DNA from: Candidatus Nanohaloarchaea archaeon
GTDB taxonomy: Archaea; Nanohalarchaeota; Nanosalinia; Nanosalinales; Nanosalinaceae
Length of the DNA stretch: 64,000 nucleotides
Assembly: GCA_014297435.1 (NCBI GenBank)
Contig: JACOQA010000002.1
Location: forward strand, 185,961-249,960
Direction of reading: 5' to 3'
The first letter of the stretch is position 1. Each line of letters opens with the position of its first letter. Shown here piece after piece: positions 35,227-54,232 of this stretch. A program made the translations under genes and the position numbers. The notes under the pieces were generated by a model. The model had not been told where the DNA came from and ran no database searches. It was given only the letters and a program-made list of their open reading frames with translations.

Positions 35227-35679
35227 ATGTCGACAGCAAGCAAGAATAATTCCAGTTCTAATCTAGATAGATCTGTTGAAGCCACAGAAGCGGAGATCGA
35301 GACGGTTGAAGAGATGAGGGAAACACTTTCAGAGATGGAAAAGGAATCGGAAAGATTTCGCTCTGATATAATGGAGATACTCAAATACGTGGTGGAGGCA
35401 GAAAGAGAGCTGAAAGATGTAAAATCGAAGGAGGCTGCTGCTAAAAGGACAGGAAACCCGCGCCAGCTTGCACAAGCTGTGAGAGAAGAACATAGAACAA
35501 TAGAAGAACTAAGTCATGTGAAAGAAGGCATGTCGGATCTGGCAGAGAAAATAAAGATACAGAGAGGTCTTCTAGAAGAGGCTCTAGACCTTGATGCTGA
35601 AGCAGTTGAGGAAGGAGAGCTCGCACATGAAATAGATGAGGAAGAGCTGGAAGAAATAAGAGAATCTCTTGAAACATAG
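35227..35679 (+). CDS. Acidic coiled-coil protein
   Basis: All-helical heptad pattern; ATG at 35227. Confidence 0.7.
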   Translation: MSTASKNNSSSNLDRSVEATEAEIETVEEMRETLSEMEKESERFRSDIMEILKYVVEAERELKDVKSKEAAAKRTGNPRQLAQAVREEHRTIEELSHVKEGMSDLAEKIKIQRGLLEEALDLDAEAVEEGELAHEIDEEELEEIRESLET

Positions 35680-35692
35680 AAAGTGTTTAGAA

Positions 35693-35923
35693 ATGGATGA
35701 AACACAGGAAAGACTTGAAAATGAGACGAAGAAATGGCTGGAAAAACTTGAGAAACGGGTAGAGAAAAGAGATGAAACCGTTGAGCAGATGGAAAATGTT
35801 CTTGCGTACAAGGACGATACCTACCATTTTCTTAAGGAAGATGATTATGTAAGGGCGTGGGAGTCGGTTATCTATGCCTGGGGAATCCTTGAGACCTTGG
35901 AGAGGCTGGGAAAGTTTGAATAG
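35693..35923 (+). CDS. DUF357 family protein
   Basis: AYKDDTYHFLKEDDYVRAWESVIYAWGILE pattern. Confidence 0.8.
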   Translation: MDETQERLENETKKWLEKLEKRVEKRDETVEQMENVLAYKDDTYHFLKEDDYVRAWESVIYAWGILETLERLGKFE

Positions 35924-35954
35924 TTAAAAACGAGCTTCTTCCAATCAAACTATT

Positions 35955-36230
35955 ATGAGGGACCCTTGGAAATACATCGCCTTTCCGATCGCCGCAGTCT
36001 CAGGCTACTTCGTATCGATCGCGGCAACCCAACAGGTTAAGGCATACCTAGGTCTCTCAGATTTTCTAACAAGAGTAATTGTTTTAGCCGCTGTCGGACT
36101 TATAGCGGGTTTTATGGTTGATGAGGTTATACCTGCCTACATAGAGAAAGTTAAAGGTTCTCAAGGCGGTGTCAGAGGAGATGACTTCGGTGGCGGCGGA
36201 GGTGGAGACGATTTCGACTTCGACAACTAA
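35955..36230 (+). CDS. Two-TM membrane protein with a Gly/Asp-rich tail
   Basis: Hydrophobic hairpin; tail GGGGGGDDFDFDN. Confidence 0.7.
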   Translation: MRDPWKYIAFPIAAVSGYFVSIAATQQVKAYLGLSDFLTRVIVLAAVGLIAGFMVDEVIPAYIEKVKGSQGGVRGDDFGGGGGGDDFDFDN

Positions 36231-36678
36231 ACTACTGGTAGGTCTCGCCGGCATCTTGATGTTATCGGGCGCTGTCTCAGGATATTATTACGGCGATGGA
36301 TCAGGAAGTTCGCTTTCCACTGGTAATGCCGAATTTTCGATTCCACAGTATAATTCTCAGGGCGAAATCCTGACTAAGTTAGTGGCTCCGTTCCTACTAG
36401 TATTCATAATATTCTATCTAGGTCTTTTCAAAGCGCTCTGGTTTGCATATGCTGACGATGATGGACCTTTCCTAACAAAGAATAAGAAGGAGGAGAAGAA
36501 GCAGGTCAGGAAGTACGCCACAATAATATCGATCCTTATTTCGGCGATGATTATTCCTTCGCCGCTTTTCCATGCGTTGAATGATTTCACGGCGATAGTT
36601 TTCGGAGGTCTTACCTACATACTTCTGGGTGCTTTGGGCTTCGCATTTTTACTGGTTCTCTGGAGCATCTTCTCCTGA
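36211..36678 (+). CDS. Membrane protein of the PFLL-motif family; start uncertain (ATT 36211, ATG 36181 or 36169)
   Basis: Signal-like STSTTKLLVGLAG.., LVAPFLLVFIIFYLGL, three TMs; GGAGGTGG precedes the ATT. Confidence 0.65.
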   Translation: MSTSTTKLLVGLAGILMLSGAVSGYYYGDGSGSSLSTGNAEFSIPQYNSQGEILTKLVAPFLLVFIIFYLGLFKALWFAYADDDGPFLTKNKKEEKKQVRKYATIISILISAMIIPSPLFHALNDFTAIVFGGLTYILLGALGFAFLLVLWSIFS

Positions 36679-36722
36679 TTAAGCCCAGATAATTTATAAA
36701 TTAGGTGCGAATTAACTACTGT

Positions 36723-38210
36723 ATGAATAACAAAATAAAGGCGATTCTAGCCTCCTTCTTTGTCCAGATCTCAACAGTTGCAGCTCAAAATGATCCTATC
36801 GGAGTAGCGAGTGGGAGCGGAGATTTCCAAGGACTCATACCATTAATGTCTGATATTTTTGGATTGCAAATAGGTGGATGGCAGGACGTAGCAGTATTCG
36901 GAGCAACCATAGGTGTTTTCTGGTTATCATTCTATATTGTTATCGAGACAGCCTTGAGAAGGATGGGCAATGACTACCTGCTTAAGGCATCTGGATTAGA
37001 CGAAAGTTACAACTCTGATGGCGGTATGAGTAGCAGGGTCGCGCTATTCTCGCTTTTACTGGTAGTTTCTGCCTTCGGAGCAAACGGAGTATTCGGAATA
37101 ATCGAGGGTCTTCAGGGCGTTATTCTATTTGCTATGGGTTTCGGACTACTCGGAGCCATTCTCTGGGCTATCGGCGGAGGACTTATCTTCTCCGGAATGG
37201 GTGCAAAGGTCGCCGGCGAAGGAACCAAAGAATGGGGGGAAGCGGCCTCTGGAACCAAACAGTATCTCGAGGATGCGGTTGAAAACATGAACGCTGGTGG
37301 AGGTAACCAGGAGGAACATCTCGAGAAAGCTATTCAGGACATCAAAAATGCTGAAACAGACGTAGAAGAAATGCTCGAGATAGATATTCAGAGGATTGAA
37401 GATATTGCAGAGGAAATAAAGGAAGAGATAAGGTTTGAGGAAGATGAGATTGAAGATGAGAGAGAGATTCAACAGGTAATTAAAGACATTAGAAAGAAAA
37501 TTGACAATGCAGAACGTGTTAATCCTGACCAAAGAAGGGGGAGACCAGAACAAATTTATAAGTCTATTTTAGGCTTCAACGATCAAAATGGCACAAGTTT
37601 GGAGAAAGACTTGCAGGTATTGCACAGCCTGCTTAAAAATATAGATGGCGATCAAGAAGGAGAGATTTCTGAGATAGAGGACGAGGTTCAGGCGATTGAG
37701 GAAACAGTAGAGGAGTTAGAAAAAGACTTCCAAGCAGTAAGAAAACTTGGAGAGATAATACGGGACAGCGAAGCCCACTGGGAGAATATAAGAGAAAGAA
37801 TGGGCTCGGATGAAGAATTAGCCTTAGAAGAGTCACAAATTGAGAAATTGGAGGGAATCATGCAAGGTCTTGGCGATCTAGAGTCTCAGGCAATAGCAGA
37901 GCTAGAACAGCTAGAAAATCTTCTTGAAAAGCAGATTACTCTCGGAGAGGAAGAAATCAAGATGCTTAGTGAAGAAATAAGTGAGTCTAAGGGATTAGAG
38001 GCAAAAATGGAAGATCTTGAGAATACAATGGTCAAAAAACTTGACGGCGACGCCGATGTCTTGAAAGAACTAGGTAGAGCTATGAGGCTAGTCGAAGAAG
38101 ACATAATGCCTGAACTTCAAAGAATTGACAACTTAGATGAGAAAGAGGTCAAAAACGAGTCTAAAGCTCTTGAAAGAGTGAGGGAGGCAATAAGTACACT
38201 ATCCCAATGA
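36723..38210 (+). CDS. Multi-TM protein with a long acidic coiled-coil C-terminus
   Basis: Signal peptide, 3-4 TMs, then about 300 aa of heptads. Confidence 0.75.
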   Translation: MNNKIKAILASFFVQISTVAAQNDPIGVASGSGDFQGLIPLMSDIFGLQIGGWQDVAVFGATIGVFWLSFYIVIETALRRMGNDYLLKASGLDESYNSDGGMSSRVALFSLLLVVSAFGANGVFGIIEGLQGVILFAMGFGLLGAILWAIGGGLIFSGMGAKVAGEGTKEWGEAASGTKQYLEDAVENMNAGGGNQEEHLEKAIQDIKNAETDVEEMLEIDIQRIEDIAEEIKEEIRFEEDEIEDEREIQQVIKDIRKKIDNAERVNPDQRRGRPEQIYKSILGFNDQNGTSLEKDLQVLHSLLKNIDGDQEGEISEIEDEVQAIEETVEELEKDFQAVRKLGEIIRDSEAHWENIRERMGSDEELALEESQIEKLEGIMQGLGDLESQAIAELEQLENLLEKQITLGEEEIKMLSEEISESKGLEAKMEDLENTMVKKLDGDADVLKELGRAMRLVEEDIMPELQRIDNLDEKEVKNESKALERVREAISTLSQ

Positions 38211-38269
38211 ATATTTCAGTATATATTTAAACAAATGAAGAAAATGGGCTAGTAAGAGGTAATCAAAAC

Positions 38270-38413: not shown

Positions 38414-38414
38414 G

Positions 38415-38669
38415 ATGGCCGATAAAAAGAAGTTCCACGAGTATATTTACGAGGTTGAAAACTGGATCGATGAGTTCGCGATCGCATTCCTATCGTTCGG
38501 GTTTATCGTGGCGTTCATCGAGATCCTTTTCTTCCAGTCCCAGCCGCTCACCTTCGCAACGTTAGATGAACAGATATACAAGTGGGTTCTGATGATTGGT
38601 GTCATGATAATCGGAAGAGAGCTATGGCTGCTCAACAGAAACGTAAGGGAGTATCTTGAAGGTGAATAA
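38415..38669 (+). CDS. Small two-TM membrane protein
   Basis: Two hydrophobic helices; part of the operon. Confidence 0.75.
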   Translation: MADKKKFHEYIYEVENWIDEFAIAFLSFGFIVAFIEILFFQSQPLTFATLDEQIYKWVLMIGVMIIGRELWLLNRNVREYLEGE

Positions 38670-38673
38670 CTGA

Positions 38674-39255
38674 GTGGCTTTCAACCTCAGTAAGTGGATT
38701 CAAACTATGGCGGATATGGACGTCTTCACCGTCCTTCTGCCCTTTTTGCTATCTCTAGCGCTCTTCAACTTTATACTTAAAGATCTAGACATATTTGATG
38801 AAGATACTTTAGGTCAGAAAACCGCTGGTCTGATCGCTTTAATACTCTCCCTATTTGTTGCTTACTTCCTTGTCGCGAATCCGTACTACCAGAACTTTTT
38901 CACGGATTACTTCGCAAGAATAGCTATAGGGATCGCAGGGCTGCTTGGTCTGTTGATATTCCTAGCATATGCGGGAGTCAAGCCAGGTAATGTGCCACTA
39001 GTTACAGCATTGGTCGTCCTAGGTACTGTAGGCGCATTCGCTATGTCTAGAGGATTTGACGCATTCCTCCCGACCTCGCAGGTTCCTGTACTGGACATGT
39101 CAATCCAGCAGATCTTCAGGGGTCTGGTTGATTCCGGAGTCATATATCTACTCATAATAGGTTTAGCAGTCTACTACATTGTCCACGATACAAGAGACGA
39201 TGAGGATCAGACCAGAACAGGAGAAGTGCTTGAATCACTTCTCGGAGCAGACTAG
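38674..39255 (+). CDS. Polytopic membrane protein (PFLL-motif paralog)
   Basis: MDVFTVLLPFLLSLALFNFILKDLDIF; AGGTGA SD. Confidence 0.75.
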   Translation: MAFNLSKWIQTMADMDVFTVLLPFLLSLALFNFILKDLDIFDEDTLGQKTAGLIALILSLFVAYFLVANPYYQNFFTDYFARIAIGIAGLLGLLIFLAYAGVKPGNVPLVTALVVLGTVGAFAMSRGFDAFLPTSQVPVLDMSIQQIFRGLVDSGVIYLLIIGLAVYYIVHDTRDDEDQTRTGEVLESLLGAD

Positions 39256-39265
39256 GTGATCAAAG

Positions 39266-39814
39266 ATGGGATTATTCGAGACACTGGTTCAAAACATGTC
39301 GCAGATGGACTTGTTCCATCTATTCTTCCCATGGCTCCTAATCACTGCAATCACTTACGGGGCTTTAAACAAGACAGAGATATTTGAAGAAGATACTATT
39401 GATGCCGCTGTTGCATTATCCGTAGGATTTATCTCGATGGCAGGTCTTCTTGCTTTCGTACCGCCAAACATGTTCGCTCATTTCGGCGCAGCCTTAGGAT
39501 TCATCGTTTTCGGCATCCTTGGTCTCTTGATCGTGCTTGCGATGGCAGGAGTTGATGTCAATGATCTCGCGGATGCAGGGGACACACCACTTCAAGGAAA
39601 TCCGATCGCGGTCGCAGGTATCGTACTCGTTGGAATAGCTTTAATCGGAGTTACCTTGACATATACTGACCTTGGAGGATTCTTGCCCGGGCTATCAGGA
39701 GATATTGATCTAAGCTTAAACATTGGGAGTGAAGCGATAATGCAGGTACTAACTATGGCGTTCCTGCTCGCGATGATCGGCGTAGTGATAAAGGTAACAG
39801 GAGAAGAAGGCTAA
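39266..39814 (+). CDS. Polytopic membrane protein (PFLL-motif paralog)
   Basis: MDLFHLFFPWLLITAITYGALNKTEIF; AGGTGA 6 nt before ATG. Confidence 0.75.
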   Translation: MGLFETLVQNMSQMDLFHLFFPWLLITAITYGALNKTEIFEEDTIDAAVALSVGFISMAGLLAFVPPNMFAHFGAALGFIVFGILGLLIVLAMAGVDVNDLADAGDTPLQGNPIAVAGIVLVGIALIGVTLTYTDLGGFLPGLSGDIDLSLNIGSEAIMQVLTMAFLLAMIGVVIKVTGEEG

Positions 39815-39872: not shown

Positions 39873-40760
39873 TTACCAATCATCCATATCCATGTCTTTG
39901 ATATCGTCTTCTGAGATGTTGGAGTCGGTTTCGATGCCTCTCTCCTGCTTGATCTCCTGAACTAGTGTTGTTAGTTCACGGACGTTATCGACTAATGAAG
40001 GAAGTACCTGTTGGAAAGCTTTTTCGAGTCCTCCGATCCTTGACTGGTAGGAGTCGATATCTTGCTCTATCTCGTTCATCTTGTCAATGAACTGTGTCTG
40101 ATCCTCATCATCTCGTACCTCAAGATCGTGTACTCTTTCATCTAGTTCATCTACTTTCTGTTTCAATTCGTCTATTTCCGAGTATGCGTTTTCGAACTCT
40201 TCCTCAACTTTCTGGAAGTTCTCCGCTACAATTGTTTCTATTAGTTCCTCTACCTGCGAGGTTTGTCCTTCCAACTGCGGATTCTGTTGTTGCTGTGCGT
40301 TTTGCTGTGGCTGAGGGTTTCCGCCCATCGGCGGCTGCGGTTGCTGATTTGGTGCCGGTTCAGGGTTTGAATCGTTCATTCCATTATTTTCATCTTGATT
40401 GTATCCTTCGTCCATAGGCGACACCTGGTCTCCACCTCCCTGGTAAGGAGTCATAGGCTCAGGTCCTTCCGACTCTCCGGAAGCTTTAGAAGTAACTGCC
40501 TGTGTCACAGCTTTCTGTATCTCTTGATCTGAGTACTGACCCTGAAGCTCGCTCTTAATCTCGTCTTCAGAATAGCCTTGATCAAACATTTCGTTTACCT
40601 GTCTCTCGAGACCCGAACTGAAATCGTTTCCCCCTCCTAGTCCTGAGGACTGGCTCTGGTTTAAGCCACTTGAGCCGGACAGACTGTTAGAAGAACTGGA
40701 GGAACTAGTATCTGAAGAATCTTCTTCGTCTCTCAGCCGGCCAAAAAGTTTGAACTTCAT
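39873..40760 (-). CDS. Protein with a disordered N-half and a C-terminal coiled coil
   Basis: S/Q/P-rich linker, then VEELIETIVAENF...RIGGLEKAFQQVLPSLVDNVREL heptads. Confidence 0.75.
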   Translation of the reverse strand: MKFKLFGRLRDEEDSSDTSSSSSSNSLSGSSGLNQSQSSGLGGGNDFSSGLERQVNEMFDQGYSEDEIKSELQGQYSDQEIQKAVTQAVTSKASGESEGPEPMTPYQGGGDQVSPMDEGYNQDENNGMNDSNPEPAPNQQPQPPMGGNPQPQQNAQQQQNPQLEGQTSQVEELIETIVAENFQKVEEEFENAYSEIDELKQKVDELDERVHDLEVRDDEDQTQFIDKMNEIEQDIDSYQSRIGGLEKAFQQVLPSLVDNVRELTTLVQEIKQERGIETDSNISEDDIKDMDMDDW

Positions 40761-41218
40761 ATTTTGTCCTCTCCAAAGGCGTTACTACCTGTTTGTTCTT
40801 CCATGCTTTTAATCTTCCTGTCTATCATTCTTTCGACCTCGTCCTTTGTAACCCCTTCTCTTTCTGACATCAGCTTCTTTACCTCTTTTTTAGTCATAAA
40901 AGAAGACTTTATAGGGTTCATCAGCTCCATGTAGTTCTCTATCTCTTCTATTTCCTGTTTAGAGACGTATTTCCGTCTTTCACGGTTAAGATCTTTTATG
41001 TCGACCTCCATATTCGCCATTCTGTCCCTGATCTCTTCTATCTCGTCTTCAAGCTCCTGTATATCGCCTGAAAGATCTTTTGTCTTTTCTAGAACAGTGT
41101 CGTCAAGAGTGTTGACTCTAGCGTTAATGTTTCTGACCTGTTCCTCCAGGTCTCGGACTCTTCGGTTGAAGTCGTTGACCCGGTTCACGATCCGGTTCAT
41201 CAGGTCTTGCTGAGGCAC
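40757..41218 (-). CDS. Coiled-coil protein divergent from the pilus ATPase
   Basis: RRVRDLEEQVRNINARVNTLDD heptads. Confidence 0.75.
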   Translation of the reverse strand: MPQQDLMNRIVNRVNDFNRRVRDLEEQVRNINARVNTLDDTVLEKTKDLSGDIQELEDEIEEIRDRMANMEVDIKDLNRERRKYVSKQEIEEIENYMELMNPIKSSFMTKKEVKKLMSEREGVTKDEVERMIDRKIKSMEEQTGSNAFGEDKI

Positions 41219-41247
41219 ACCTTTTATTCACCAACGGTTGAATATTA

Positions 41248-43509
41248 ATGGTAATGGCTGTACAGGACAAGGACGTCTTTGATTACGAGTACGATGACGA
41301 GTCAGGAAAGATAGAGATAAACCTTCTAGGCTCGGTCTACGGCGCCTCAATCGAAGACTACCCCGAAGTAATGTCCCGAGTAATAAACATACTACAAGAA
41401 GTGCCCGAAGCAACCTCCGTAGTGCTATCAGAATCAAGGGACTACGAGTACGATCAGGAACAAGTACATCTGCTGAGAGAGATATCTAACGCAATAAGAG
41501 ACATATCCTCACAAGGGTACCTATCTCAAAGCGTCAGAACAGACAAATGTGAATCGCTTTACTCCGAACAACTTCCCGAAGTCCAGAGAATAGTTGTAGA
41601 CCAGTTAAGAAAAGATCCTGTCGGTGCATACGTACAGCTTAGAAGGAAAGAAAGACACCTAAAACAGCAGAGGAACGACTCGTATCCTCAGAGACAGCGC
41701 TGCATCAAATTCTTCATACAGGACGTAGTTAATCCGGTAAAAGATAGACTGGAGGAGTGCCAGCTTATCCAAGATGCGGTGAGAGAAGATTTTGTTACAG
41801 GCCACCATGTAGGCGACAGAGAAGTTTACAGAGAGTATTTCCATCCATTGGTTCGTCCTAACTTCATGCTTACGAAGTTCATGAGCTTGCCTCCGGAAAG
41901 AGGCAAAGAAGTAGACCGCTACACTGTTAAAGAGGATGTAGAGGTGTCGATCTACGAAGTGCCAGACCAGGTGCAGCCGGTTTACCATGTCGATCCTCCG
42001 GAGTTCAGTCTTCCGGAAGAGAAGTACCGCTTGCTGGATGCCGCAAGAAGATTCCTCGCCTCTCACCAGCCAGAGTCGGGGGAGTTCGCGAGACCGGAAA
42101 GAATGCGAGATGTATTCCAGAACATCGGGAGAGACATGATCCGTGATATCTCACAGCAGATGGACATACAGCTATCGGGAGAAGAAATGGAGGAAATGAC
42201 CTCAATACTAAACCGTTATACTTCCGGACTAGGCGTACTAGAGCTTTTACTTGCTGATCCAAAGATTCAGGATGTTTTTATCAACTCTCCTATCGGAAAC
42301 TCCCCTATCTACATCAAACACCAAGATTATGAGGAATGTGAGACTAATCTAATTCCTACGAAGGAAGAGGCGGAATCTTGGGCTACACGTTTCAGGATAA
42401 AGTCAGGAAGACCTTTAGACGAAGCTAACCCGGTACTTGACACAGAAGCAGAAGTGCCTGGCGGAAGAGCAAGAGTAGCAATTATACAGGAAAACCTTTC
42501 GCCGGAAGGATTAGCATTCGCGTTCAGAAGGCACAGATCGAAAGCATGGACGCTGCCATTATTCATACACGAAAACTTCATCAACTCTATAGGCGCAGCA
42601 TTACTATCGTTTATCGTGGACGGCAACAGATCGGTTCTTTTCGCAGGTACGAGAGGTGCGGGTAAAACGTCGCTCCTTTCAGCCTCGATGCTCGAATTAC
42701 TGAAAAAAGACAGAATTGTAACCGTTGAAGACACGTTAGAACTTCCTATAAGGCAAATGAAGGACTTGGGGTTCAACCTTGAGTCCATGAAATCTCGTTC
42801 GGTTATTACTCAGGTTGAGAATGAGTTGGCGGCTCAGGATGCGATCAGAACCTCTCTCAGACTAGGCGATTCGGCACTTGTTATTGGAGAGGTCAGATCG
42901 GATGAAGCTAAAACACTTTACGAGGCTATGCGTGTTGGAGCCGTTGCAAACTTTGTAGGAGGAACAATTCACGGAGAAGATGCTTACTCAGTATTTGACA
43001 GGGTTGTAAACGACTTGAACGTTCCGAAAACTTCATTCAAGGCAACAGATATTATTGTACAGGTAAACAAGATCCAGTCGCCAGACGGATTAGAAACTTA
43101 CAGAAGAGTCACCGGGATCACCGAGGTCAGGAAAGAGTGGACCGATGATCCTCAAGAGGAAGGAGCTTTCGTCGATCTGATGCGTTACGACTCGAACAAG
43201 GACGAGCTGGTCCCTACAGACACTTTGTTGAACGGAGAATCACTTATCCTGAACAGGATCGCCGAGAACATCCGCGAATGGAAGAACGACTGGGAGGCGG
43301 TCTGGAACAACATCCAGCTTAGAAAAGATATTAAGGAAGAGATCGTCAGAAAAGCCGAAGAGGAAGGAGAAGAATACCTAGAAGCAGACTTCACTGTAAA
43401 GGCAAATCAGAGATTCCACATTCTTTCGAACAAGGTAGGCGAAGAGTATGGAGGACAAGATCCGGAAAGAATTTTCGCCCGCTGGAAGGAATGGCTTAAC
43501 CAGCAGTAG
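41248..43509 (+). CDS. Type II/IV secretion-system (pilus assembly) ATPase with a long N-terminal extension
   Basis: Walker A GTRGAGKTS, Asp box TVEDTLEL, LRLGDSALVIGEVRSDEA, GTIHG. Confidence 0.92.
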   Translation: MVMAVQDKDVFDYEYDDESGKIEINLLGSVYGASIEDYPEVMSRVINILQEVPEATSVVLSESRDYEYDQEQVHLLREISNAIRDISSQGYLSQSVRTDKCESLYSEQLPEVQRIVVDQLRKDPVGAYVQLRRKERHLKQQRNDSYPQRQRCIKFFIQDVVNPVKDRLEECQLIQDAVREDFVTGHHVGDREVYREYFHPLVRPNFMLTKFMSLPPERGKEVDRYTVKEDVEVSIYEVPDQVQPVYHVDPPEFSLPEEKYRLLDAARRFLASHQPESGEFARPERMRDVFQNIGRDMIRDISQQMDIQLSGEEMEEMTSILNRYTSGLGVLELLLADPKIQDVFINSPIGNSPIYIKHQDYEECETNLIPTKEEAESWATRFRIKSGRPLDEANPVLDTEAEVPGGRARVAIIQENLSPEGLAFAFRRHRSKAWTLPLFIHENFINSIGAALLSFIVDGNRSVLFAGTRGAGKTSLLSASMLELLKKDRIVTVEDTLELPIRQMKDLGFNLESMKSRSVITQVENELAAQDAIRTSLRLGDSALVIGEVRSDEAKTLYEAMRVGAVANFVGGTIHGEDAYSVFDRVVNDLNVPKTSFKATDIIVQVNKIQSPDGLETYRRVTGITEVRKEWTDDPQEEGAFVDLMRYDSNKDELVPTDTLLNGESLILNRIAENIREWKNDWEAVWNNIQLRKDIKEEIVRKAEEEGEEYLEADFTVKANQRFHILSNKVGEEYGGQDPERIFARWKEWLNQQ

Positions 43510-45949: not shown

Positions 45950-47824
45950 GTGATTATAAAGCATATATTTGGTATTGCGGTGATGGTAATACTAGGATCA
46001 GCTCTTATGGGGTCACTTAACTCCATAAAGGTCAACTCTCTTGATCCGAGCGCTGAAAACACCTCGCAAACCATCGAGGAATTTGGTCGAGACAAGTCAG
46101 TTAGAATAGGTTGGGATGAGGAGGAAGAGGAAAAAACAACTCAAACTATTGCAAGGAAGCAATTTGAAGGTTTGTTGGTTTGGAATATGCTTGCAGCGAG
46201 CGATTGTATGTTACTTCAGGTTATAGATACAGGAAATACTAAAAGCACGCTAAACGATCTTAGAAAAGATGGAGATCCTGCTTATACAGGTTTTGGGGGT
46301 TTTGGACCTCTTCTAAGAACAGGTTTTGAAGGTAGGTGTGCGGAAGCGGATAGTGTAGGTTATCAGATAAAGAGGACTGCGTATAGTATGGCTAAAGTCC
46401 CACAGTTTAATGCAGAGAGAGTTGGTTCACCCGCACACGATATGGAAGGGAACTTTGGAAGAGTAGGTTTCAATGTTAGTGAGAGCTTTCATATCGATAC
46501 AAAGGGTGATAATGGCATCCTCTTAGGTTTCCACGGTAAATATGAATCGCCGGATTTAGTCAACCAGATTCAATCTATCTACTCAGATGTACAAGGTAAA
46601 GACAATCTACCTGATTTCTGGATAGCCCAAAGAGCTTCAATAATAATACCTCCGAATTTAGCGCCTTCGGGAAGTAGAACTTCTGTTTTTAAGCTGTATC
46701 ATAGAGAGGGGGAAAACAGTGAATCGCTCATAAATTTTGATGGTGTATTCAATGGCTTTGGATATACGGATAATCCTAAAGGTCACAAGCTATATGCATG
46801 GAGACCTTCGGCGCATGAAGTGCCATGGGTTTTCGAGAACCAGAGAGGTCTCCATTCTATTGATGTAAACAACGGAGAGACGATGCTGGATACAGCACTA
46901 AGAAGAGGAGAGTGGCATTTCTGTGAGGGTGCTGAAGGACAAATAATAAGCAAAGCAAGATCCTTTTCCAACACGGGAGAGGCGTCCGGTAATAATCCGA
47001 AAAAAGAGGACTCGGTTTTCCCAAAGATAACACTTTTTGATCCTGGAGAGGGTGACGGATGTGAGCCTGGAGGTCCTGAGGGTTTCCCTGAGCGTGTAAC
47101 CACTAGTAGTTCTTACCAGGATACAATATCGTGCTCTAGACAGGAAGCTGCGAATAAAAAGATCCCTGAGGGTAGTAGAACACTTCTAGGATATGATGGG
47201 CAAGAAAAAATGTTTGTAGGTTATGGTTGCGGTCTTCAAGAGCATAATTTTGATTTTGGAAGCCATGATTTTAACAGAAATAACCACTATGATGGAGAAG
47301 TAACTTTCTATACGCCTGCGGTCTATAGTTCATGTTCTTACAATCATAAATGGTACAATGTTCTTCCTCTAAAAGACGGTATCGCTCCTGAGGATGAAAA
47401 AACTCTCAAAGCTGGTGAAGCAGTTAATTTTGATCTAAATGAGCATAATGAGATAAAAAAACTTCAAATAACGTTTGAAAAAAGAGATGGTGCGGACTTA
47501 GATGTTTCAATGGGAGAGAAAAAAATCTCAATAAACTCTTCTAATAACAAAGCTGGGGTTGCTGAGGACTCGACATCAATTGAAGGCGGATATGATACGG
47601 GCGTATATGAATTAACATATCGGCGTGAAAGCGCAGTTGGTATCCCTGGAGGCGAAGATGCTTCGTCAGGTAAACTCATACTTCGTGCTGAATCTGGGGA
47701 GGCCAATAGAAAGGTTTTCCTTTCGACAGGAGTATATGATATAAACTCGGTTGAAGTAAATGCTGATTCGGGTCAAGTATCTTTGAGAGATGTAAGTCTC
47801 TATTCTTATCCTACTCAATGTTGA
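45950..47824 (+). CDS. Large Cys-rich minor pilin/adhesin-like protein (paralog A)
   Basis: N-terminal hydrophobic helix; colinear with 48021-50033. Confidence 0.7.
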   Translation: MIIKHIFGIAVMVILGSALMGSLNSIKVNSLDPSAENTSQTIEEFGRDKSVRIGWDEEEEEKTTQTIARKQFEGLLVWNMLAASDCMLLQVIDTGNTKSTLNDLRKDGDPAYTGFGGFGPLLRTGFEGRCAEADSVGYQIKRTAYSMAKVPQFNAERVGSPAHDMEGNFGRVGFNVSESFHIDTKGDNGILLGFHGKYESPDLVNQIQSIYSDVQGKDNLPDFWIAQRASIIIPPNLAPSGSRTSVFKLYHREGENSESLINFDGVFNGFGYTDNPKGHKLYAWRPSAHEVPWVFENQRGLHSIDVNNGETMLDTALRRGEWHFCEGAEGQIISKARSFSNTGEASGNNPKKEDSVFPKITLFDPGEGDGCEPGGPEGFPERVTTSSSYQDTISCSRQEAANKKIPEGSRTLLGYDGQEKMFVGYGCGLQEHNFDFGSHDFNRNNHYDGEVTFYTPAVYSSCSYNHKWYNVLPLKDGIAPEDEKTLKAGEAVNFDLNEHNEIKKLQITFEKRDGADLDVSMGEKKISINSSNNKAGVAEDSTSIEGGYDTGVYELTYRRESAVGIPGGEDASSGKLILRAESGEANRKVFLSTGVYDINSVEVNADSGQVSLRDVSLYSYPTQC

Positions 47825-48020: not shown

Positions 48021-50033
48021 ATTATAAAGCATATATTTAGTATAGCGGTCATGGTAATACTTATTTCGTCGTTTATGGCTGTGCTTAACTCTATAAAAGT
48101 AGAATCATTCGATCCGGCTACAAACAACGCATCCTCAACGATAGAGGATTTTGGAAGAGATAAATTCATTGAAATAGGTAGAGATACTACCTTAAATGAT
48201 GGTAATGGTGAGATAAAAGATGATTCCCAATTCGCAAAAAGGCAGTTTGAGGGTTTGTTGGTTTGGAATATGCTTGCAGCGAGCGACTGTATGTTGCTAC
48301 ATATAATTGAGAACAATAACCCTGAATTACACCTAAAACACCTCAGAGATAACAAAGAAACAGGTTATGTAGAGTTCTTCGGCTGGTCAGAACTGAAGAA
48401 GGCAGATTTCGATATGACCTGCGCACAGGCAGGAAGTATAGGATTCGAAGTAAATAGGCAAAGCCCCACAACTATAATTACTATGGATGCAAAAAGGGCA
48501 GCTCAACCAGGAAAGGACATGGAGGGCAACTTTGGTAAAACACGGTTTAATATAAGCAAAAGCTTCAGTATAGATTCATTAGGAGATGACGGTATTCTAT
48601 TAGGCCTTAAGACGAAATTTGAGGAAGCAGGGGCTTTAGATGCGGCTTTTGGCGAATTGGAAGTATTTGATTCGGGTCCGGACTCGGCGAACATGCCCGA
48701 CTTCTGGGCGGGTCAAAGGGTTTCGGTTCTCCGGCCTCCAAGCCTAGATCCAATGAACTATGGAGATTTGTATAACCGCCATATGTACATGATACATCCT
48801 AGTACAGATAATAATAACAAGGAAGACAGGGCAGGCTATCTCCATTTCGGTTCACAGTTCAATGATTTTGGCTATACAAATGATCCTGTAGCTTATAAGT
48901 TCTCAGCGTGGCGTCCTTCAGTGCACGATGGGACTTGGGTCTTTGCTAATGGTAGGTCGCCTCATAAAATTAAGAAGGATCTCTCTGTAGGTGATGGTGA
49001 AAGAACAGGTCGAAAAGTGCTTATAAACTCAATAAAGAACGGAGAATGGGTTTTCTGTAAAGGAATGGAGGGATATGTTATTTCGAAAGCTCAAAGGTTC
49101 AGTAACCTAGGAGAGGCGTCCAGTAATAACCCGAAAAAGGAGGATACAGTTCTACCTAAAATTCAGATAACTGAGCCGGGAAATGGCACTAACTGTCAAG
49201 AGGGCGGGCCTGATGGTTTCAACGAGTTCGTTGGCCATCAAAGTAAGATTAATAGAAATGGAGTAGAATTTAGCTGTAGTAGACTACAAGCGGCGAACAA
49301 AAAAATAACGGATAAAGAAGCCTTAAAAACTGAAATAGGTAAGCAAGATGGAGAAATGCAGTATTTAACTTATGGGTGTGGTCTAACACAACATACTTTT
49401 GATTTTAACGATTTTGAATGGTCTGGAGTTACTGTAACGGTTTCAGAGACTGGTCAAGGCTCTACACGTGAAACGCGTGCGGGTCAGCATTATCAGGGTG
49501 CGATGACTTACTATACTCCGGGAATGTGGAAGAGCTGTCCGTCCGGTTATGAGAACTATGAAATTCTCTCACTAAAAGACAATCTCGGTGAAAATGGCTA
49601 CAAAGAACTTGGCGGCGGTGATAACTCGATAAGTTTTGGGAACGACCAATTTAGTAATATTCAAGGCGTCGAAATTATTTACGAAAAAAGAGATGGTGCT
49701 GAACTTGAGCTCGATATAGGCGGTCAGACCATCTCTGTGGAATCTTCGGGTTCTAACTCGCCAGGAAAACTTTCTATAGGTTCCAACACGGATGAGTTAG
49801 ATGTTAGCTACGAAACAGGTGTTTATATGCTTGACTTGGTCTCATTCGATGGAATCGCTGGAGGCGACGGTTCTAACTCTGCCTCCCTCATAGAAGAGGG
49901 AGGGGAAGGTCAAGGTATAGGAGCTATGGGAGCTGACTACAACAATATTGAATCATTTGATATTACCAAGCAAGGTTCAGGTGAAATCATTTTGAGGGAG
50001 GTGAGAGTAGATGCAAAGCCCACAGAGTGCTAG
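48021..50033 (+). CDS. Large Cys-rich minor pilin/adhesin-like protein (paralog B); start at ATT 48021 or ATG 48051
   Basis: Shares RQFEGLLVWNMLAASDCMLL, DMEGNFG, AWRPS.H, NNPKKED, YGCGL and EKRDGA with paralog A; similarity extends upstream of the ATG. Confidence 0.7.
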   Translation: MIKHIFSIAVMVILISSFMAVLNSIKVESFDPATNNASSTIEDFGRDKFIEIGRDTTLNDGNGEIKDDSQFAKRQFEGLLVWNMLAASDCMLLHIIENNNPELHLKHLRDNKETGYVEFFGWSELKKADFDMTCAQAGSIGFEVNRQSPTTIITMDAKRAAQPGKDMEGNFGKTRFNISKSFSIDSLGDDGILLGLKTKFEEAGALDAAFGELEVFDSGPDSANMPDFWAGQRVSVLRPPSLDPMNYGDLYNRHMYMIHPSTDNNNKEDRAGYLHFGSQFNDFGYTNDPVAYKFSAWRPSVHDGTWVFANGRSPHKIKKDLSVGDGERTGRKVLINSIKNGEWVFCKGMEGYVISKAQRFSNLGEASSNNPKKEDTVLPKIQITEPGNGTNCQEGGPDGFNEFVGHQSKINRNGVEFSCSRLQAANKKITDKEALKTEIGKQDGEMQYLTYGCGLTQHTFDFNDFEWSGVTVTVSETGQGSTRETRAGQHYQGAMTYYTPGMWKSCPSGYENYEILSLKDNLGENGYKELGGGDNSISFGNDQFSNIQGVEIIYEKRDGAELELDIGGQTISVESSGSNSPGKLSIGSNTDELDVSYETGVYMLDLVSFDGIAGGDGSNSASLIEEGGEGQGIGAMGADYNNIESFDITKQGSGEIILREVRVDAKPTEC

Positions 50034-50196
50034 TAAAGGTTTGGAAGCTATCGACTCTACAGCCAAGATAACTCTGGCTGTAATAATTATGGTGGCGTTA
50101 ATCGTTGCGATAACAGGACTTCTTGATCAAGGTCTTTCTGACTTTCTTTCCGTAGCTTCGACAGGTGAAGAAGGAGTCATACCGAAATATAGGTAA
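50011..50196 (+). CDS. Small pilin-like protein
   Basis: SKG-LEAIDSTAKITLAVIIMVALIVAI. Confidence 0.65.
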   Translation: MQSPQSASKGLEAIDSTAKITLAVIIMVALIVAITGLLDQGLSDFLSVASTGEEGVIPKYR

Positions 50197-50229
50197 GCTA
50201 TAAATTCGGTTACAGGAAGTGAAACTTGT

Positions 50230-50355
50230 ATGGAGGTATCTCTCAAAATCGTAATGTCGGTCGTCGCAGGTATCTCAGTAATCCTGGTTATAGCCTTGAT
50301 AGTTAACAGTCAGGCAAATGGCGCTCTTGATTTTCTCAGTGGGTCGCTGCCATGA
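50230..50355 (+). CDS. 41-aa pilin-like microprotein (not in ORF track)
   Basis: MEVSLKIVMSVVAGISVILVIALIVNSQANGALDFLSGSLP; ATGA overlap with the next gene. Confidence 0.65.
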   Translation: MEVSLKIVMSVVAGISVILVIALIVNSQANGALDFLSGSLP

Positions 50356-50579
50356 ATATGTCGATTCATTCAGTTGTCGCAATAGCGATTGCAATACTCT
50401 TGATTGTAGCACTGTATGGTTTGGCGTCAGGGGGTCTTTCGGAGATTGAGGAAGCGATTACAGGAGATGATGGAAGCATACAAGATGATGCCCAACAGCC
50501 TGAAGGAAAGGAATGGGAAAGTCCAGATGAGATTAATGAAGATTTTAGAGACAATGCGGAGTTGATTCAGAGTGGCTAA
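50352..50579 (+). CDS. Small pilin-like protein
   Basis: MNMSIHSVVAIAIAILLIVALYGL helix plus an acidic tail. Confidence 0.65.
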   Translation: MNMSIHSVVAIAIAILLIVALYGLASGGLSEIEEAITGDDGSIQDDAQQPEGKEWESPDEINEDFRDNAELIQSG

Positions 50580-50580
50580 A

Positions 50581-50748
50581 ATGTCTCCAACAATACTGGT
50601 AACTGCAATCCTTGGAGCTGTCATGCTTGGAGCAGTTTTAGTTGTAGCTAGCTCCCAACTTAATAATCTTGTAGGCGGTGTTGGTTCAGTTTCAATTATA
50701 GGGCTAAAATTAGGGAGGTATGCTGATGAAAAGGAAAGGTTCCTCTGA
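50581..50748 (+). CDS. 55-aa pilin-like microprotein (not in ORF track)
   Basis: MSPTILVTAILGAVMLGAVLVVASSQLNNLVGGVG...; fills the gap exactly. Confidence 0.55.
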   Translation: MSPTILVTAILGAVMLGAVLVVASSQLNNLVGGVGSVSIIGLKLGRYADEKERFL

Positions 50749-51139
50749 AACTATTGCATTAGCGATAGTTGGGATTGTAATCTTCGGTCTTATGGCGGTT
50801 ATAGGCATAAATAGGATGACTGATTTAGACGACCGTATAAGAGTTAGAACAGTTGAAATACCGGCTGATAGGATGGGTCCAACGATAGATATGGCGAGCG
50901 CGCTAGATGAGGCTGAGATAGAGATTAGTTTTGATGTAGAGCACGGCATAGTACGGAAAAACGGTGGTGTGCATCTTAATTATACGCATGAGACTCTGAT
51001 TAACTGGCCGGGCTCAGACAAAAACAGCCATCCCATTGAATCTAAGGTCGGTCTTGACGAGATTAAGGAAGGCGTATCAGATGATATCTGTATACGTAAA
51101 AAGTCGGGAGAAATCTCTATAGCAGCAGAGGAGTGCTAA
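50726..51139 (+). CDS. Pilin-like protein
   Basis: MKRKG-SSETIALAIVGIVIFGLMAVI class III signal. Confidence 0.75.
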   Translation: MKRKGSSETIALAIVGIVIFGLMAVIGINRMTDLDDRIRVRTVEIPADRMGPTIDMASALDEAEIEISFDVEHGIVRKNGGVHLNYTHETLINWPGSDKNSHPIESKVGLDEIKEGVSDDICIRKKSGEISIAAEEC

Positions 51140-51141
51140 AA

Positions 51142-51555
51142 ATGGATATTGAGCACTTTGAAATGATAGGCGGAATGGTACTTTTCACAGCTGTTCTAAT
51201 ACTTGCGATACAGTTCCAAGTATCTTTAATGGAGGGCATATCCGAAGTTTCAGGTACATGGGTGACAGGTGAAGGTTCGAAGGCTGCAGCATCATTCCAT
51301 ATAGCAAGCCAGGGCGAGAGACTCGGAAAATTACGTCAGGCACAAGTCAATACTATGGGAGGTTCAGCGTATTCAGGGTGTACAGCTAGCTTTCCAGGTC
51401 TTGAAGATTCAGAACCTCTAAGGTATAACTGGGAAGCATTGAATTATTGTGGAGATTTGAATCCCGAAGTGGTTAGACTTGATTTACCTCTGCGAATAGA
51501 TGTCGGAGAAGGTCAATCGGATTTTAGAATACTTCAGATAGGAGGTGCCTCATGA
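51142..51555 (+). CDS. Pilin-like protein
   Basis: MDIEHFEMIGGMVLFTAVLILAIQF N-terminal helix; part of the operon. Confidence 0.6.
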   Translation: MDIEHFEMIGGMVLFTAVLILAIQFQVSLMEGISEVSGTWVTGEGSKAAASFHIASQGERLGKLRQAQVNTMGGSAYSGCTASFPGLEDSEPLRYNWEALNYCGDLNPEVVRLDLPLRIDVGEGQSDFRILQIGGAS

Positions 51556-51556
51556 C

Positions 51557-52204
51557 GTGAAGGGAGCTTTTGACTCTGCAGCAACAATAATTATCGTGGT
51601 CGTCTCAGTTTTGATGATTGTAATGACTTTATCTATAGTAACGTTGATGTATTCTCAAGGAGGAGAGCTTAAAGCCGATTCAAGCATGCAGGCTATAGTA
51701 GAGGAATACAAGAGAGGTTACCAGGCACATATGACTATGGCTGCATTAACAGGTAACTTTGAGTTTAGGAACGCTACGGGTTACTATCTTGCTAATGGGA
51801 AAAGCCGATTGAAGAGTGACGTGATAATTCCGGAAGGAAACAAGATAATACCTCGGCAAAGCAGTATACACATCTTTTCTGTAGGTGATGAAACACTGTT
51901 TCGTTCCGGAGGAACTGTTACGGTACCGGAGATTCCTTCAGGTCCTGCAGATTGTCCGGGGAGCCTAAAATATGTGTATGAGGATTCGGGAGACACCGAA
52001 TTTTATGCCTGTGCAGTTTCTGAAAATCAAGGAGGTAACTGTCCGGCTCAGTCGGAAGAAGGCACATTTAATAATAAGGAGTATTGCCTAGTAGCAGGTG
52101 AGTATAGTATGAGTGCGTCCACCGCGTCTCATTCGACAATGTATGTTGCTTCACCTAGCCCAAATCTTGCTAAATTAAGTGTTGGAGTGGGTGTCCAGAA
52201 TTAA
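51557..52204 (+). CDS. Pilin-like protein
   Basis: GTG start after GGAGGTG gives MKG-AFDSAATIIIVVVSVLMIV; Cys-rich C-domain. Confidence 0.65.
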   Translation: MKGAFDSAATIIIVVVSVLMIVMTLSIVTLMYSQGGELKADSSMQAIVEEYKRGYQAHMTMAALTGNFEFRNATGYYLANGKSRLKSDVIIPEGNKIIPRQSSIHIFSVGDETLFRSGGTVTVPEIPSGPADCPGSLKYVYEDSGDTEFYACAVSENQGGNCPAQSEEGTFNNKEYCLVAGEYSMSASTASHSTMYVASPSPNLAKLSVGVGVQN

Positions 52205-53192
52205 AGGTCAATTTACAAGTCTGGTCGGTCTCGGTCTATTTCTTTTTATTGCATCAGGCAATATCTTTGGAGCTCTAGCAATTGATACAGAGACACAGAG
52301 TATAATAGAACAAAATGCCGGCGATTACTCTATTGTTGCCGGAACTGAGCTAAAGAAAGACAACTATTTGGATAGGATGCCACGTGAACTCAATTTTACC
52401 TCAAATAATGCGGCATTAGCCCTCGGGAAAGGTGCTGGGATCGAAGGGAATAGTCTAATGTGGAATGACATACCTTCGAAGGAGCAGCTTCGGGAAAACT
52501 ATTATCTTAATATTACTGAGAGAATTGAAGAAACTCAAGGTGACGTTTTTGGTTGTCAAAGTCCGAAAGTGAAACAGCCGAAAACCGAGAATCTTGGTAA
52601 ACCTGATAACATCTACAACGCATGGTATACCGATATCCGTTGGAATCTCTCTGATCCATACATAGTTTGCTCACAGGAATCGGTTGAAGTCAATATCAGT
52701 GTTGGTAGAGATAGCTTCCACGTCAACAACACCAACAATCGTTACATCAACCTTTCCGAGACCGCGGTGGATGTAGCGAAAGAAGCGGACAGGATTATTG
52801 ACGAAACGTCTTGGCCGCGGGTACAGGATACGGAAAGCGGCTGTGATGATGTTAGAGAGGATGCAATTGAAGGTGCAAAATCTTCTGCAAAAACTAGGAC
52901 TGATATAGGTTCTAGCGCATTTGGAAATGTCGAAAAACCGGGTTATCAGACTCTTACTGCAAGTCAAATGTATTTTGAGTTTGATATAGATACTGATTCG
53001 CTCGAGGGAGATGATGATGGTTGCGGTGAGGATGGGGAGTCTCCGGAGGACAGGTGGAGGGCTTATGCGCAAGTCACAGATACCTATACAAACGTTAACA
53101 TCACTGACAGCGTGAGAACTGTTTCAGGACCTGATGGAACTTGGGATAACAATATCAAGTTCGGTTTCAACTATTCGAAGTCGGTAAACTGA
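52191..53192 (+). CDS. Minor pilin-like protein
   Basis: SRIKG-QFTSLVGLGLFLFIASG class III signal. Confidence 0.65.
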   Translation: MSRIKGQFTSLVGLGLFLFIASGNIFGALAIDTETQSIIEQNAGDYSIVAGTELKKDNYLDRMPRELNFTSNNAALALGKGAGIEGNSLMWNDIPSKEQLRENYYLNITERIEETQGDVFGCQSPKVKQPKTENLGKPDNIYNAWYTDIRWNLSDPYIVCSQESVEVNISVGRDSFHVNNTNNRYINLSETAVDVAKEADRIIDETSWPRVQDTESGCDDVREDAIEGAKSSAKTRTDIGSSAFGNVEKPGYQTLTASQMYFEFDIDTDSLEGDDDGCGEDGESPEDRWRAYAQVTDTYTNVNITDSVRTVSGPDGTWDNNIKFGFNYSKSVN

Positions 53193-53244
53193 TTAAGTAT
53201 TTATGAGTCCGCGGCTAAAAACGGGTATAACAGGTGAACTAACA

Positions 53245-53529
53245 GTGGCAGAAGAAGATGACAACACAGTATACGTCGGTTCGAAACCTGCAATGAGCTA
53301 CGTCCTGGCTGTAGTAACCCAGTTTAGCGAAGGACATGAAACAGTTCATGTCAAGGCCAGAGGAAAGGCAATTTCCAGAGCGGTTGACGTAGCTGAAATG
53401 GTTCAAAGCAAGTTCGAAGAGGAAGCAGATGTCGACGATATAGCTATTGACACCGACCAGATCGAGACAGACGAGGGCGACGAGCTAAACGTGTCTTCGA
53501 TCCAGATCGATCTATCAAAGCCTGAGTGA
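53245..53529 (+). CDS. albA: DNA/RNA-binding protein Alba
   Basis: [31 protein letters not shown] and NVSSIQI motifs; GTG start 7 nt after AGGTGA. Confidence 0.95.
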
Positions 53530-53622
53530 AGCCCATGGTGGTGTGAACCAGCACTTTATCTCTCTTTTTCTAACACTGTTTCTCCGGACGTTTTTTATAC
53601 AGGTGAAGATATAGTTTCGACT

Positions 53623-53901
53623 ATGCGCAAGGGAATGTCCCAAACTCTGACTTTGATCGTTGCTGCCTCCGTTCTAATGATGACAGCTTTAACCGTAATA
53701 TTCATGGTACAAGGAGGGTTGAGCGACGTATTCGGATCCTCAAACACGCAATCATGCTACAACTCTGTCCAATCAACATGTGAATTCTCTGATTCAGGAA
53801 ACCACCCGACACCTGAAAGCTGTAGCAGAGCAGATGTGTCTTCAGTTCCTGTAGATGGAGGATCGGTTGATGTAGGATCGAACACATATTCCTGCTCCTA
53901 G
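53623..53901 (+). CDS. Pilin-like protein (candidate major pilin)
   Basis: MRKG-MSQTLTLIVAASVLMMTALTVIFM; four Cys; TTTTTATA box about 25 nt upstream. Confidence 0.75.
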   Translation: MRKGMSQTLTLIVAASVLMMTALTVIFMVQGGLSDVFGSSNTQSCYNSVQSTCEFSDSGNHPTPESCSRADVSSVPVDGGSVDVGSNTYSCS

Positions 53902-53914
53902 AGAGTGAAACCAA

Positions 53915-54232
53915 ATGGATAAGACGATTGAACTAGTGCTGGTGGCGATGGTAACTCTTATCACAGCGCTAGTCATCGTCTACATGGTTCAGGGAGAAGC
54001 AAGTGGGTTCGGTGACTTCCTTGACGGTCAAGAAAGCACCGCAGAATGTGATCTAGCCAAAGAGAAAGTAAACAATTGTTTGGTTGATGAAGTACCGGAC
54101 GTAGAAAGTTGTAGCCCTGGTCCGATACCTCAGAGGTGTAAGGAAGATGGAGCTTTCGGTAGCTCCGGGCAAGATAGTACAGGTTCAGGAACCGGAGGCT
54201 CGGATGGTTCAGAATCCTCTGGAGGCGGTTAA
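53915..54232 (+). CDS. Pilin-like protein, paralog of 53623
   Basis: MDKTIELVLVAMVTLITALVIVYMVQG aligns with TALTVIFMVQG; four Cys; G/S-rich tail. Confidence 0.65.
   Translation: MDKTIELVLVAMVTLITALVIVYMVQGEASGFGDFLDGQESTAECDLAKEKVNNCLVDEVPDVESCSPGPIPQRCKEDGAFGSSGQDSTGSGTGGSDGSESSGGG

Follow-up and report, generated by a model that had tools for sequence, protein, structure and literature searches.

A probable type IV filament locus of a nanohaloarchaeon, with conserved coiled-coil and membrane-protein neighbours and a fast-evolving pilin cassette

To our knowledge, no DPANN archaeon in cultivation can do without physical contact with a host, and we know of no molecule established as making that contact. 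The DNA analysed here, a stretch of 64,000 nucleotides (the window) from a Candidatus Nanohaloarchaea archaeon (contig JACOQA010000002.1, positions 185,961 to 249,960), holds a secretion ATPase and a platform protein that are followed by a cassette of pilin-like open reading frames (ORFs) and preceded by coiled-coil and membrane-protein genes. Which machine do these genes encode, which of the neighbours belong to it and what could it be for? We judge it fairly probable that the locus represents, in nanohaloarchaea, a type IV filament system inherited vertically in several DPANN lineages, for which we infer accessory roles and host recognition. Five families travel together across lineages: the paralogous membrane proteins TM18x, the coiled-coil proteins cc295 and cc153, the ATPase and TadC.

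Related loci came from a scan at one genome per species, which gave 46, and homologues in them were detected by BLAST and then with hidden Markov models (HMMs) built from the BLAST matches. The features that carry the argument are as follows (HMM matches are counted among the 46 loci).

38674..39255, + strand: TM193, distal copy of the five-helix TM18x family, core component
39266..39814, + strand: TM182, proximal TM18x copy, core component
39873..40760, - strand: cc295, probably soluble coiled-coil protein, core component (HMM matches in 42/46)
40757..41218, - strand: cc153, probably soluble coiled-coil protein, core component (HMM matches in 42/46)
41219..41247, no strand: divergent intergenic region of 29 bp with two A/T-rich, TATA-like elements
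41248..43509, + strand: predicted secretion ATPase of the FlaI/GspE/CpaF superfamily, 753 aa, with a conserved N-extension of ~220 aa
43583..45667, + strand: predicted TadC/FlaJ-like polytopic platform protein, 694 aa (T2SSF match and transmembrane segments)
45758..45940, + strand: p60, small pilin-like protein with a K-G motif
45950..47824, + strand: big624, large pilin-like protein with an N-terminal helix, 8 Cys and a predicted C-terminal lectin-like beta-sandwich
48051..50033, + strand: big660, paralog of big624, true start uncertain
50011..53192, + strand: eight pilin-like ORFs, namely p61, a 41-aa ORF (50230-50355), p75, p58, p139, p140, p219 and p337
53623..53901, + strand: p92, candidate major pilin ([KR]-K-G motif and nearly invariant helix)
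53915..54232, + strand: p105, conserved pilin-like protein without a K-G motif (HMM matches in 22/46)

The first-pass annotation, made from the letters of the window, had proposed a 753-aa secretion ATPase with a long N-extension, and this ORF is confirmed. Residues 439-595 match Pfam T2SSE (E 1.6e-15). The closest solved relative is GspE of A. fulgidus (2oap, E 2.9e-27), followed by CpaF and FlaI; because the 2oap match covers only query residues 222-641, some 220 residues constitute the N-extension. Across 32 aligned ATPases, down to 45% identity, the residues of the Walker A motif (G467, R469, G472, K473, S475), the Asp box (E494, D495, T496, E498), the Walker B motif (G547, E548, V549, R550) and the His box (T573, H575) are invariant. 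The product is thus predicted to be a secretion ATPase of the hexameric type in which every catalytic motif is intact. The N-extension holds ~23 invariant residues in the same alignment; it matches no Pfam family at E<=1, and its best score in an Atlas search (0.81) is under lead level. Relatives of the ATPase are 75-100% identical and, among the matches listed, those carrying names are Nanohaloarchaea. Seven of the 120 ATPase orthologues listed carry intein/LAGLIDADG Pfam families, and such orthologues are ~1250 aa long. The match is broken at query residue 497 or 506 in L026, L027, L032, L033, L035, L036 and L046, a position that adjoins the invariant E494-D495-T496-E498 motif.

Downstream, the ORF first read as TadC-like matches T2SSF with residues 442-567 (29.2 bits, cut-off 25.2), and a second T2SSF repeat in its N-terminal half is sub-threshold (16.4 bits). 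From these matches we assign it as a TadC/FlaJ-like platform. The pair resembles the bacterial Tad/Flp pilus (CpaF, TadB/TadC) in its ATPase, which matches the structure 8rkd (E 6.5e-19) and the TadA/CpaF equivalog TIGR03819, and in its T2SSF platform. Unlike in that system, the TIGR03819 score of 125.3 bits is under the cut-off of 373.15, no secretin, TadZ or RcpA-type genes accompany the pair, and the archaeal envelope has a single membrane.

ATPase and platform are also homologous to the archaellum motor (FlaI/ArlI and FlaJ/ArlJ, with ArlCDE or ArlX), and the locus could be taken for a reduced archaellum used for swimming. FlaI is indeed the best NCBIfam model for the ATPase, homologues are often annotated 'flagellar protein FlaI' at source, and FlaC_arch is the most frequent match of the cc295 family (35 of 42 members, below cut-off; 25.2 bits against 27.8 for the window protein). 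The FlaI score, however, is 138.4 bits, far under its cut-off of 550; two unrelated coiled-coil ORFs of the window match FlaC_arch as well, again below cut-off; and FlaH (KaiC-like), FlaF, FlaG and archaellin families were found in none of the scanned window ORFs, as the first reading had held. Hamm et al. (2019) observed FlaI-, FlaJ- and archaellin-annotated proteins in the proteome of Ca. Nha. antarcticus, read them as a pilus-like structure that is present in other DPANN and, in the accessible part of their text, state that the subunits present cannot form an archaellum. An archaellum is therefore extremely improbable. On the same sub-threshold and unspecific FlaC_arch matches, an identification of cc295 as ArlC-like was set aside. 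The combination of this ATPase with TadC and with class III-type N-termini in the pilin cassette (see below) bears out the earlier assignment to the archaeal type IV filaments.

Which neighbours belong with the motor? Like the two coiled-coil families, TM18x is present in 42 of the 46 loci, and the core order is TM18x copies, two coiled-coil genes, ATPase, TadC. Three of the four misses lack upstream DNA, the ATPase match beginning at locus base 2-4. Of the 43 loci with DNA upstream of the ATPase, 42 thus show the linkage, and in all 42 cc153 is arranged head-to-head with the ATPase. The tree of 32 related ATPases follows the expected lineage grouping. (One locus, L015, is titled Colwellia polaris, a bacterium, but is typically nanohaloarchaeal with an ATPase 77% identical; the bin is probably mislabelled.)

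Outside Nanohaloarchaeota the comparison covers three loci, L039, L044 and L037, none of them from Pacearchaeota, Nanoarchaeota or Undinarchaeota. In L039 (titled Woesearchaeota, ATPase 45% identical) three TM18x copies are followed by cc295 and, after an inserted gene, by cc153, which lies head-to-head with ATPase-TadC. L037, which is distant and has no lineage title (ATPase 51%), retains the core with three TM18x copies. L044 (titled Aenigmatarchaeota, ATPase 51%) has four TM18x copies, both coiled-coil genes, ATPase and TadC, with three small Cys-rich pilin-like ORFs between the last two and about nine more pilin-like ORFs beyond TadC, among them a 634-aa protein with 28 Cys. The TM18x matches in these loci were BLAST-negative and lie outside the HMM seeds (E 1.4e-13 in L039, 4.5e-13 in L044, 3.7e-12 in L037). 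The coiled-coil and TM18x genes thus stay linked to the ATPase beyond Nanohaloarchaeota, contrary to the loss of linkage in other genomes that the first-pass annotation had named as refuting it.

Linkage of this kind might still arise if the coiled-coil and TM18x genes served another process, such as membrane remodelling or division, and owed their place next to the pilus genes to ancestral gene order and a promoter region in common. The window has many acidic coiled-coil ORFs, five of which flank the locus, and one of the loci, L028, has the ATPase without coiled-coil or TM18x genes. In L044 the housekeeping gene dph5 lies near the TM18x block (4566-5309, ~0.7 kb away), so that some ancestral order survives without a functional link and the wider gene order may be partly ancestral. 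Yet the linkage persists where ATPase identity has fallen to 45-51% and every other neighbour is different, the head-to-head position of cc153 is kept in every linked locus, and Hamm et al. (2024, PMC11291902) independently found coiled-coil genes beside pilus genes. We consider this explanation quite unlikely.

The preferred reading, an accessory complex of a filament motor, depends on what the coiled-coil proteins are. Their genes begin 29 bp from the ATPase start, head-to-head (first estimated at ~30 bp), and converge, as had been noted, on the + strand membrane-gene block (35955-39814), whose end lies 58 bp from that of cc295. In cc153, R19, R20, R22, E25 and P102 are invariant in 41 sequences, which marks it, at the level of the alignment, as a real family; Pfam gives its members only generic coiled-coil families, sub-threshold. 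In cc295 the conserved parts are a peptide at the N-terminus and, strongly so, a coiled coil at the C-terminus; between them lie a small helical block and a variable linker rich in P and Q. Pfam gave nothing specific for the helical block, whose UBA-like appearance is an impression only. A hydrophobic 19-residue window was found in none of 41 cc153 and none of 42 cc295 members, and a signal peptide in none of the 83; because of this the proteins are read as cytoplasmic, and both are probably soluble. cc153 aligns in hhalign to the C-terminal coiled coil of cc295 (probability 90.7%, E 1.3e-6), which may reflect paralogy or coiled-coil composition only.

The 29-bp spacer between cc153 and the ATPase contains two A/T-rich elements, each ~25 nt upstream of the opposite start codon, and 30 of 42 loci have the pair. 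One compact bidirectional promoter probably serves both divergent operons, a layout that leaderless transcripts would fit; we base the promoter role on motif and position.

TM18x genes number one to four per locus, in tandem, and none lies more than 2.5 kb from cc295, with which they converge in 41 of 42 loci. The AlphaFold2 model of TM182 (predicted local distance difference test, pLDDT, 78.7) has a short N-terminal helix and then five long helices, and a Foldseek search of it against the PDB gave no matches at E<=0.001. Its nearest Atlas clusters are uncharacterised 'Archaea, Nanobdellota' proteins. The family profile retrieves 3217 cluster representatives at E<=0.001 (1791 at E<=1e-10), whose taxonomy rests only on that Atlas label; nearly all of the 150 representatives listed are full-length (110-226 aa), and one is a 365-aa double. 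In a careful tree, rooted at the midpoint and with long outgroup branches, the nanohaloarchaeal copies separate into a proximal clade (support 96/94) and a distal clade (100/99), the latter holding 34 distal copies and one other row. Each paralog is retained in ~34 genomes with fixed order, which fits two non-redundant subunits.

The remaining genes of this side were part of the single machine that had first been proposed. They are listed here together with the housekeeping neighbours and Alba.

34498-35202: dph5, housekeeping neighbour
35212-35679: cc155, acidic coiled-coil ORF (homologue in 1/46 related loci)
35669-35923: DUF357 gene
35955..36230, + strand: TM91, small membrane protein with hydrophobic segment 31-63 (HMM matches in 24/46)
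36169..36678, + strand: TM169, 4-helix membrane protein (HMM matches in 25/46)
36705..38210, + strand: TMcc501, fast-evolving protein with a membrane N-terminal part and a long acidic coiled-coil
38415..38669, + strand: TM84, single-helix membrane protein (HMM matches in 33/46)
53203-53529: Alba gene (Pfam 6e-20; TIGR00285 116 bits, cut-off 88)

For the single machine the linkage data sustain the coiled-coil genes, TM193 and TM182. TM84, TM91, TM169 and TMcc501 occur in the Nanohaloarchaeota branch only (33, 24, 25 and 21 loci), and because housekeeping neighbours (dph5, DUF357, Alba and the phosphoglycerate mutase gene iPGM) are equally syntenic there, we do not count them as machine parts. 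TM84 sits 4 nt upstream of TM193. TM169 cross-matches the TM18x HMMs weakly (E 0.0079 and 1.5e-5) and is possibly a distant relative. TMcc501 is 54% identical in L001, the closest genome locus, and DNA over 37388-38219 cannot be aligned to it. cc155, DUF357 and Alba are not part of the machine.

On the other side of the motor, 13 pilin-like ORFs (about 12 in the first reading) lie between 45758 and 54232, twelve of 58-660 aa and one of 41 aa. All have an N-terminal hydrophobic helix, which in big660 is truncated by the called start. In six, p60, p61, p139, p219, p337 and p92, the helix is preceded by a K-G motif, which we take to be the class III signal cleavage motif. By a simple hydropathy rule, a single N-terminal helix is present in 10 of 12 ORFs inside 45700-54300 versus 10 of 58 elsewhere in the window. 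Cys counts are even (2, 4 or 8) in nine of the 12 pilin-like ORFs tabulated. Among 22 aligned sequences p92 shows [KR]-K-G and then a nearly invariant hydrophobic helix, which makes it the candidate major subunit. The Alba gene is placed inside the cassette, between p337 and p92; it was detected by BLAST in 25 of the 46 loci, and its position is unchanged in L013, L014 and L018, the loci in which coordinates were inspected. A convergent iPGM gene closes the series.

The cassette evolves very fast. By HMM, p61, p58 and p219 are each found in one of the 46 loci, p75 in seven, p140 in 10, p337 in 16 and p139 in 27. Median identity to the window in 36 nanohaloarchaeal loci (L001 left out) is 84% for Alba, 78% for the ATPase, 66% for cc153, dph5 and iPGM, 65% for TadC, 55% for cc295 and p92, 48% for TM84, 38% for TM182, 33% for TM193, 27% for big624 (11 loci) and 26% for p337 (9 loci); p61, p75, p58 and p219 were not detected (0/36). 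Against L001 the ATPase is 99% and the DNA ~78-82% identical, the large proteins are 39-53% identical, and the DNA is unalignable over most of 46.1-49.9 kb. The G+C minimum of the window (0.407-0.419 at 46001-50000, against ~0.43-0.46 in adjacent 2-kb windows) coincides with these hypervariable large paralogs.

The paralogy of the two large proteins, big624 and big660, is clear (39% identity, E 2e-148). At the position of the GTG start of big624, big660 has GCG, downstream of a ribosome-binding-like stretch that both share; big660 thus has no canonical start at that position (region 48015-48053), and with the first ATG its hydrophobic helix is truncated. The DNA upstream of big660 holds a decayed p60 copy. 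The sequences thus point to a tandem duplication of a unit made of p60 and a large gene. p60 and big624 share a frame with stops between them, and read-through was considered; it was rejected because the stop is followed by a ribosome-binding-like stretch, which is also found ahead of big660, and by the GTG.

The description of these proteins as 'adhesin-like', also made at first reading, holds less firmly. The AlphaFold model of big624, built on 23 sequences (pLDDT 67.8, predicted template modelling score 0.65), shows a long helix at the N-terminus and, modelled with confidence, a beta-sandwich at the C-terminus. Foldseek found 90 matches of the sandwich in the PDB at E<=0.001, to lectin or jelly-roll modules: it resembles GH32 beta-sandwich modules, galectins, legume lectins and a sialidase carbohydrate-binding module, with TM-scores of 0.5-0.58 on galectin-sized targets, and also matches phage tail-fibre and depolymerase proteins. 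The modelled fold makes 'adhesin-like' plausible for big624 and big660, and is not specific, being a generic binding fold.

Could the cassette form a short device of the pseudopilus type instead, for uptake or export of DNA, lipids or proteins at host contact, as in competence pili or type II secretion, with the lectin-like proteins as cargo or docking factors? Its many minor pilin-like ORFs do resemble pseudopilin sets. The ATPase is unusually conserved (a median of 78% against 66% for dph5 and iPGM, and 99% against L001 at ~80% DNA identity), which fits a function that the cell cannot lose, and DPANN depend on host material according to the available text of Hamm et al. (2019) and Hamm et al. 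(2024, PMC11291902). The one well-conserved canonical pilin, p92, is in contrast what filament-forming systems have, and none of the genes linked across phyla encodes a cargo, a nuclease or a DNA-binding protein; Alba, a general chromatin protein, is the sole nucleic-acid-binding gene. We regard such a device as unlikely and keep to a filament.

How much of this has been described? Hamm et al. (2024, Nat Commun, PMC11291902) report, in their main text, that two type IV pilus loci with coiled-coil protein genes are conserved in cluster 2 DPANN and Undinarchaeota, occurring in Nanohaloarchaeota, Woesearchaeota, Aenigmarchaeota and others, with two coiled-coil proteins in 'locus 2'. They detected the coiled-coil proteins by proteomics in Ca. 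Nha. antarcticus and likened them to the reovirus sigma-1 attachment fibre. As in those loci, the coiled-coil genes here adjoin a CpaF-like ATPase and TadC and are kept in other cluster 2 DPANN lineages. The link between coiled-coil genes and type IV pilus loci is thus real and already published, and novelty, which the first-pass annotation had left to be checked, falls away for most of the composition. Our locus corresponds to the kind described in that text. Unlike what the sigma-1 comparison would suggest, the cc153 and cc295 families have neither signal peptide nor hydrophobic segment, which points to the cytoplasm. The words 'transmembrane' and 'membrane protein' have no occurrences in the main text of that paper, figures and supplements being outside this count.

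Two further filament groups are alike by description. Type IV filament 'system 2' (clade 2 of Makarova et al., 2016; PMC13705601), which the accessible text describes mainly for Methanobacteriati, shares the extended ATPase N-terminus, a single platform gene, pilins with and without the class III motif, membrane proteins and large adhesin-like proteins. It differs in its MinD link and arCOG pilins, which were not found here; the likeness is one of description and not of clade placement. The halobacterial subclade 4F (Makarova et al., 2016; PMC4858521, in the part available), whose ATPase clade is said to be found in nanoarchaea too, has a unique intracellular coiled-coil protein, arCOG07564; as described, this component is similar. 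The closest haloarchaeal plasmid ATPase, of Haloterrigena pHTUR04, is 37% identical over residues 196-608 with no match to the N-extension, and its neighbourhood gave no matches to the accessory HMMs. The literature search turned up no newer studies of pilins in nanohaloarchaea, nor any that pair coiled-coil proteins with type IV systems in Nanobdellati. Three points seem to be unreported in the main texts of the relevant papers: that TM18x is the fifth component to be conserved, that the coiled-coil proteins are soluble and lack a signal peptide, and that a promoter-like motif pair is shared between the two operons. An ordered, hypervariable pilin cassette with lectin-like large subunits is also added here.

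Several observations weigh against a vertically inherited filament system. None of the 13 pilin-like ORFs matches a pilin family of Pfam or NCBIfam, and in seven the K-G motif is absent. Confidence in the big624 model is medium, with pLDDT below 50 for 162 of 624 residues. Among the ORFs of the window there is no prepilin peptidase (PibD/FlaK/EppA); the class III signal peptidase gene is usually encoded away from the pilus locus. L028 has an ATPase that is orthologous by tree, but its 5.1 kb of upstream DNA carries another TadC-like gene and lacks every accessory gene, and L039 has no pilin cassette beside TadC. Housekeeping order is also conserved in Nanohaloarchaea, so that for the accessory module real weight lies only in the three loci from outside, two of them lineage-titled. 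Both the hhalign match between cc153 and cc295 and the FlaC_arch matches may reflect coiled-coil composition only. Finally, according to the accessible text of a 2026 census (PLoS Genet, PMC13705601), DPANN seldom have ordered type IV filament loci, and the subsystem to which these belong is mostly ambiguous.

These data are consistent with a model in which the ATPase and the platform would build a thin filament from p92, and with it p105. Its tip or decoration, recognizing the host surface, could consist of the rapidly evolving small pilins and the pair of large, Cys-rich, lectin-like proteins. cc153 and cc295, together with a TM18x heteromer, would form a cytoplasmic and membrane accessory complex of the motor that acts as scaffold, anchor or regulator, comparable in role, by analogy, to ArlX/ArlCDE of archaella or PilMNO of bacterial pili; the cytoplasmic coiled-coil accessory proteins of the archaellum set a precedent for cc153 and cc295. 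The compact bidirectional promoter would drive both operons. Gene content suggests a role in host attachment or contact, and the attachment or exchange that had first been proposed keeps that standing. We entertain, as a doubtful extension, that cc153, cc295 and the TM18x heteromer are a DPANN-specific motor-associated complex that defines a separate type IV filament subsystem, missed by arCOG-based censuses, and that the ordered locus, with hypervariable pilins tipped by lectin-like domains, is the main host-recognition organ of these symbionts; a subsystem missed in this way would explain why DPANN pilus genes appear scattered and unclassifiable.

The proteins of the interval are acidic, and the DNA around it holds further candidate surface genes and coiled-coil genes. 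Three tandem paralogous ORFs at 22124-24772 (325, 257 and 303 aa) carry a lipobox-like A-S-G-C after a signal helix and are probably lipoproteins. Two large secreted proteins of 583 and 1084 aa (24986-30112, - strand) with Ig-like, PKD, PEGA and CarboxypepD_reg domains are further surface or adhesion candidates. The five acidic coiled-coil ORFs that flank the locus lie at 30126-31124, 31196-32062, 32221-33438, 55575-56840 and 56885-58804; two of them are those with FlaC_arch matches below cut-off, and coiled-coil genes are frequent in this genome. A gene of the phage integrase family is located near the window end (61679-62968).

For the biology of DPANN archaea, the locus is one of few candidate contact systems common to several of their lineages. 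Its ATPase is conserved beyond the neighbouring housekeeping genes dph5 and iPGM, whereas the exposed parts change almost unrecognisably between close relatives, a pattern that is expected for host recognition. The full parts list, the TM18x family, p92 as candidate major pilin and big624 and big660 as candidate receptor-binding proteins offer targets for nanohaloarchaeal co-cultures, and the work would let classifiers of type IV filaments capture DPANN systems.

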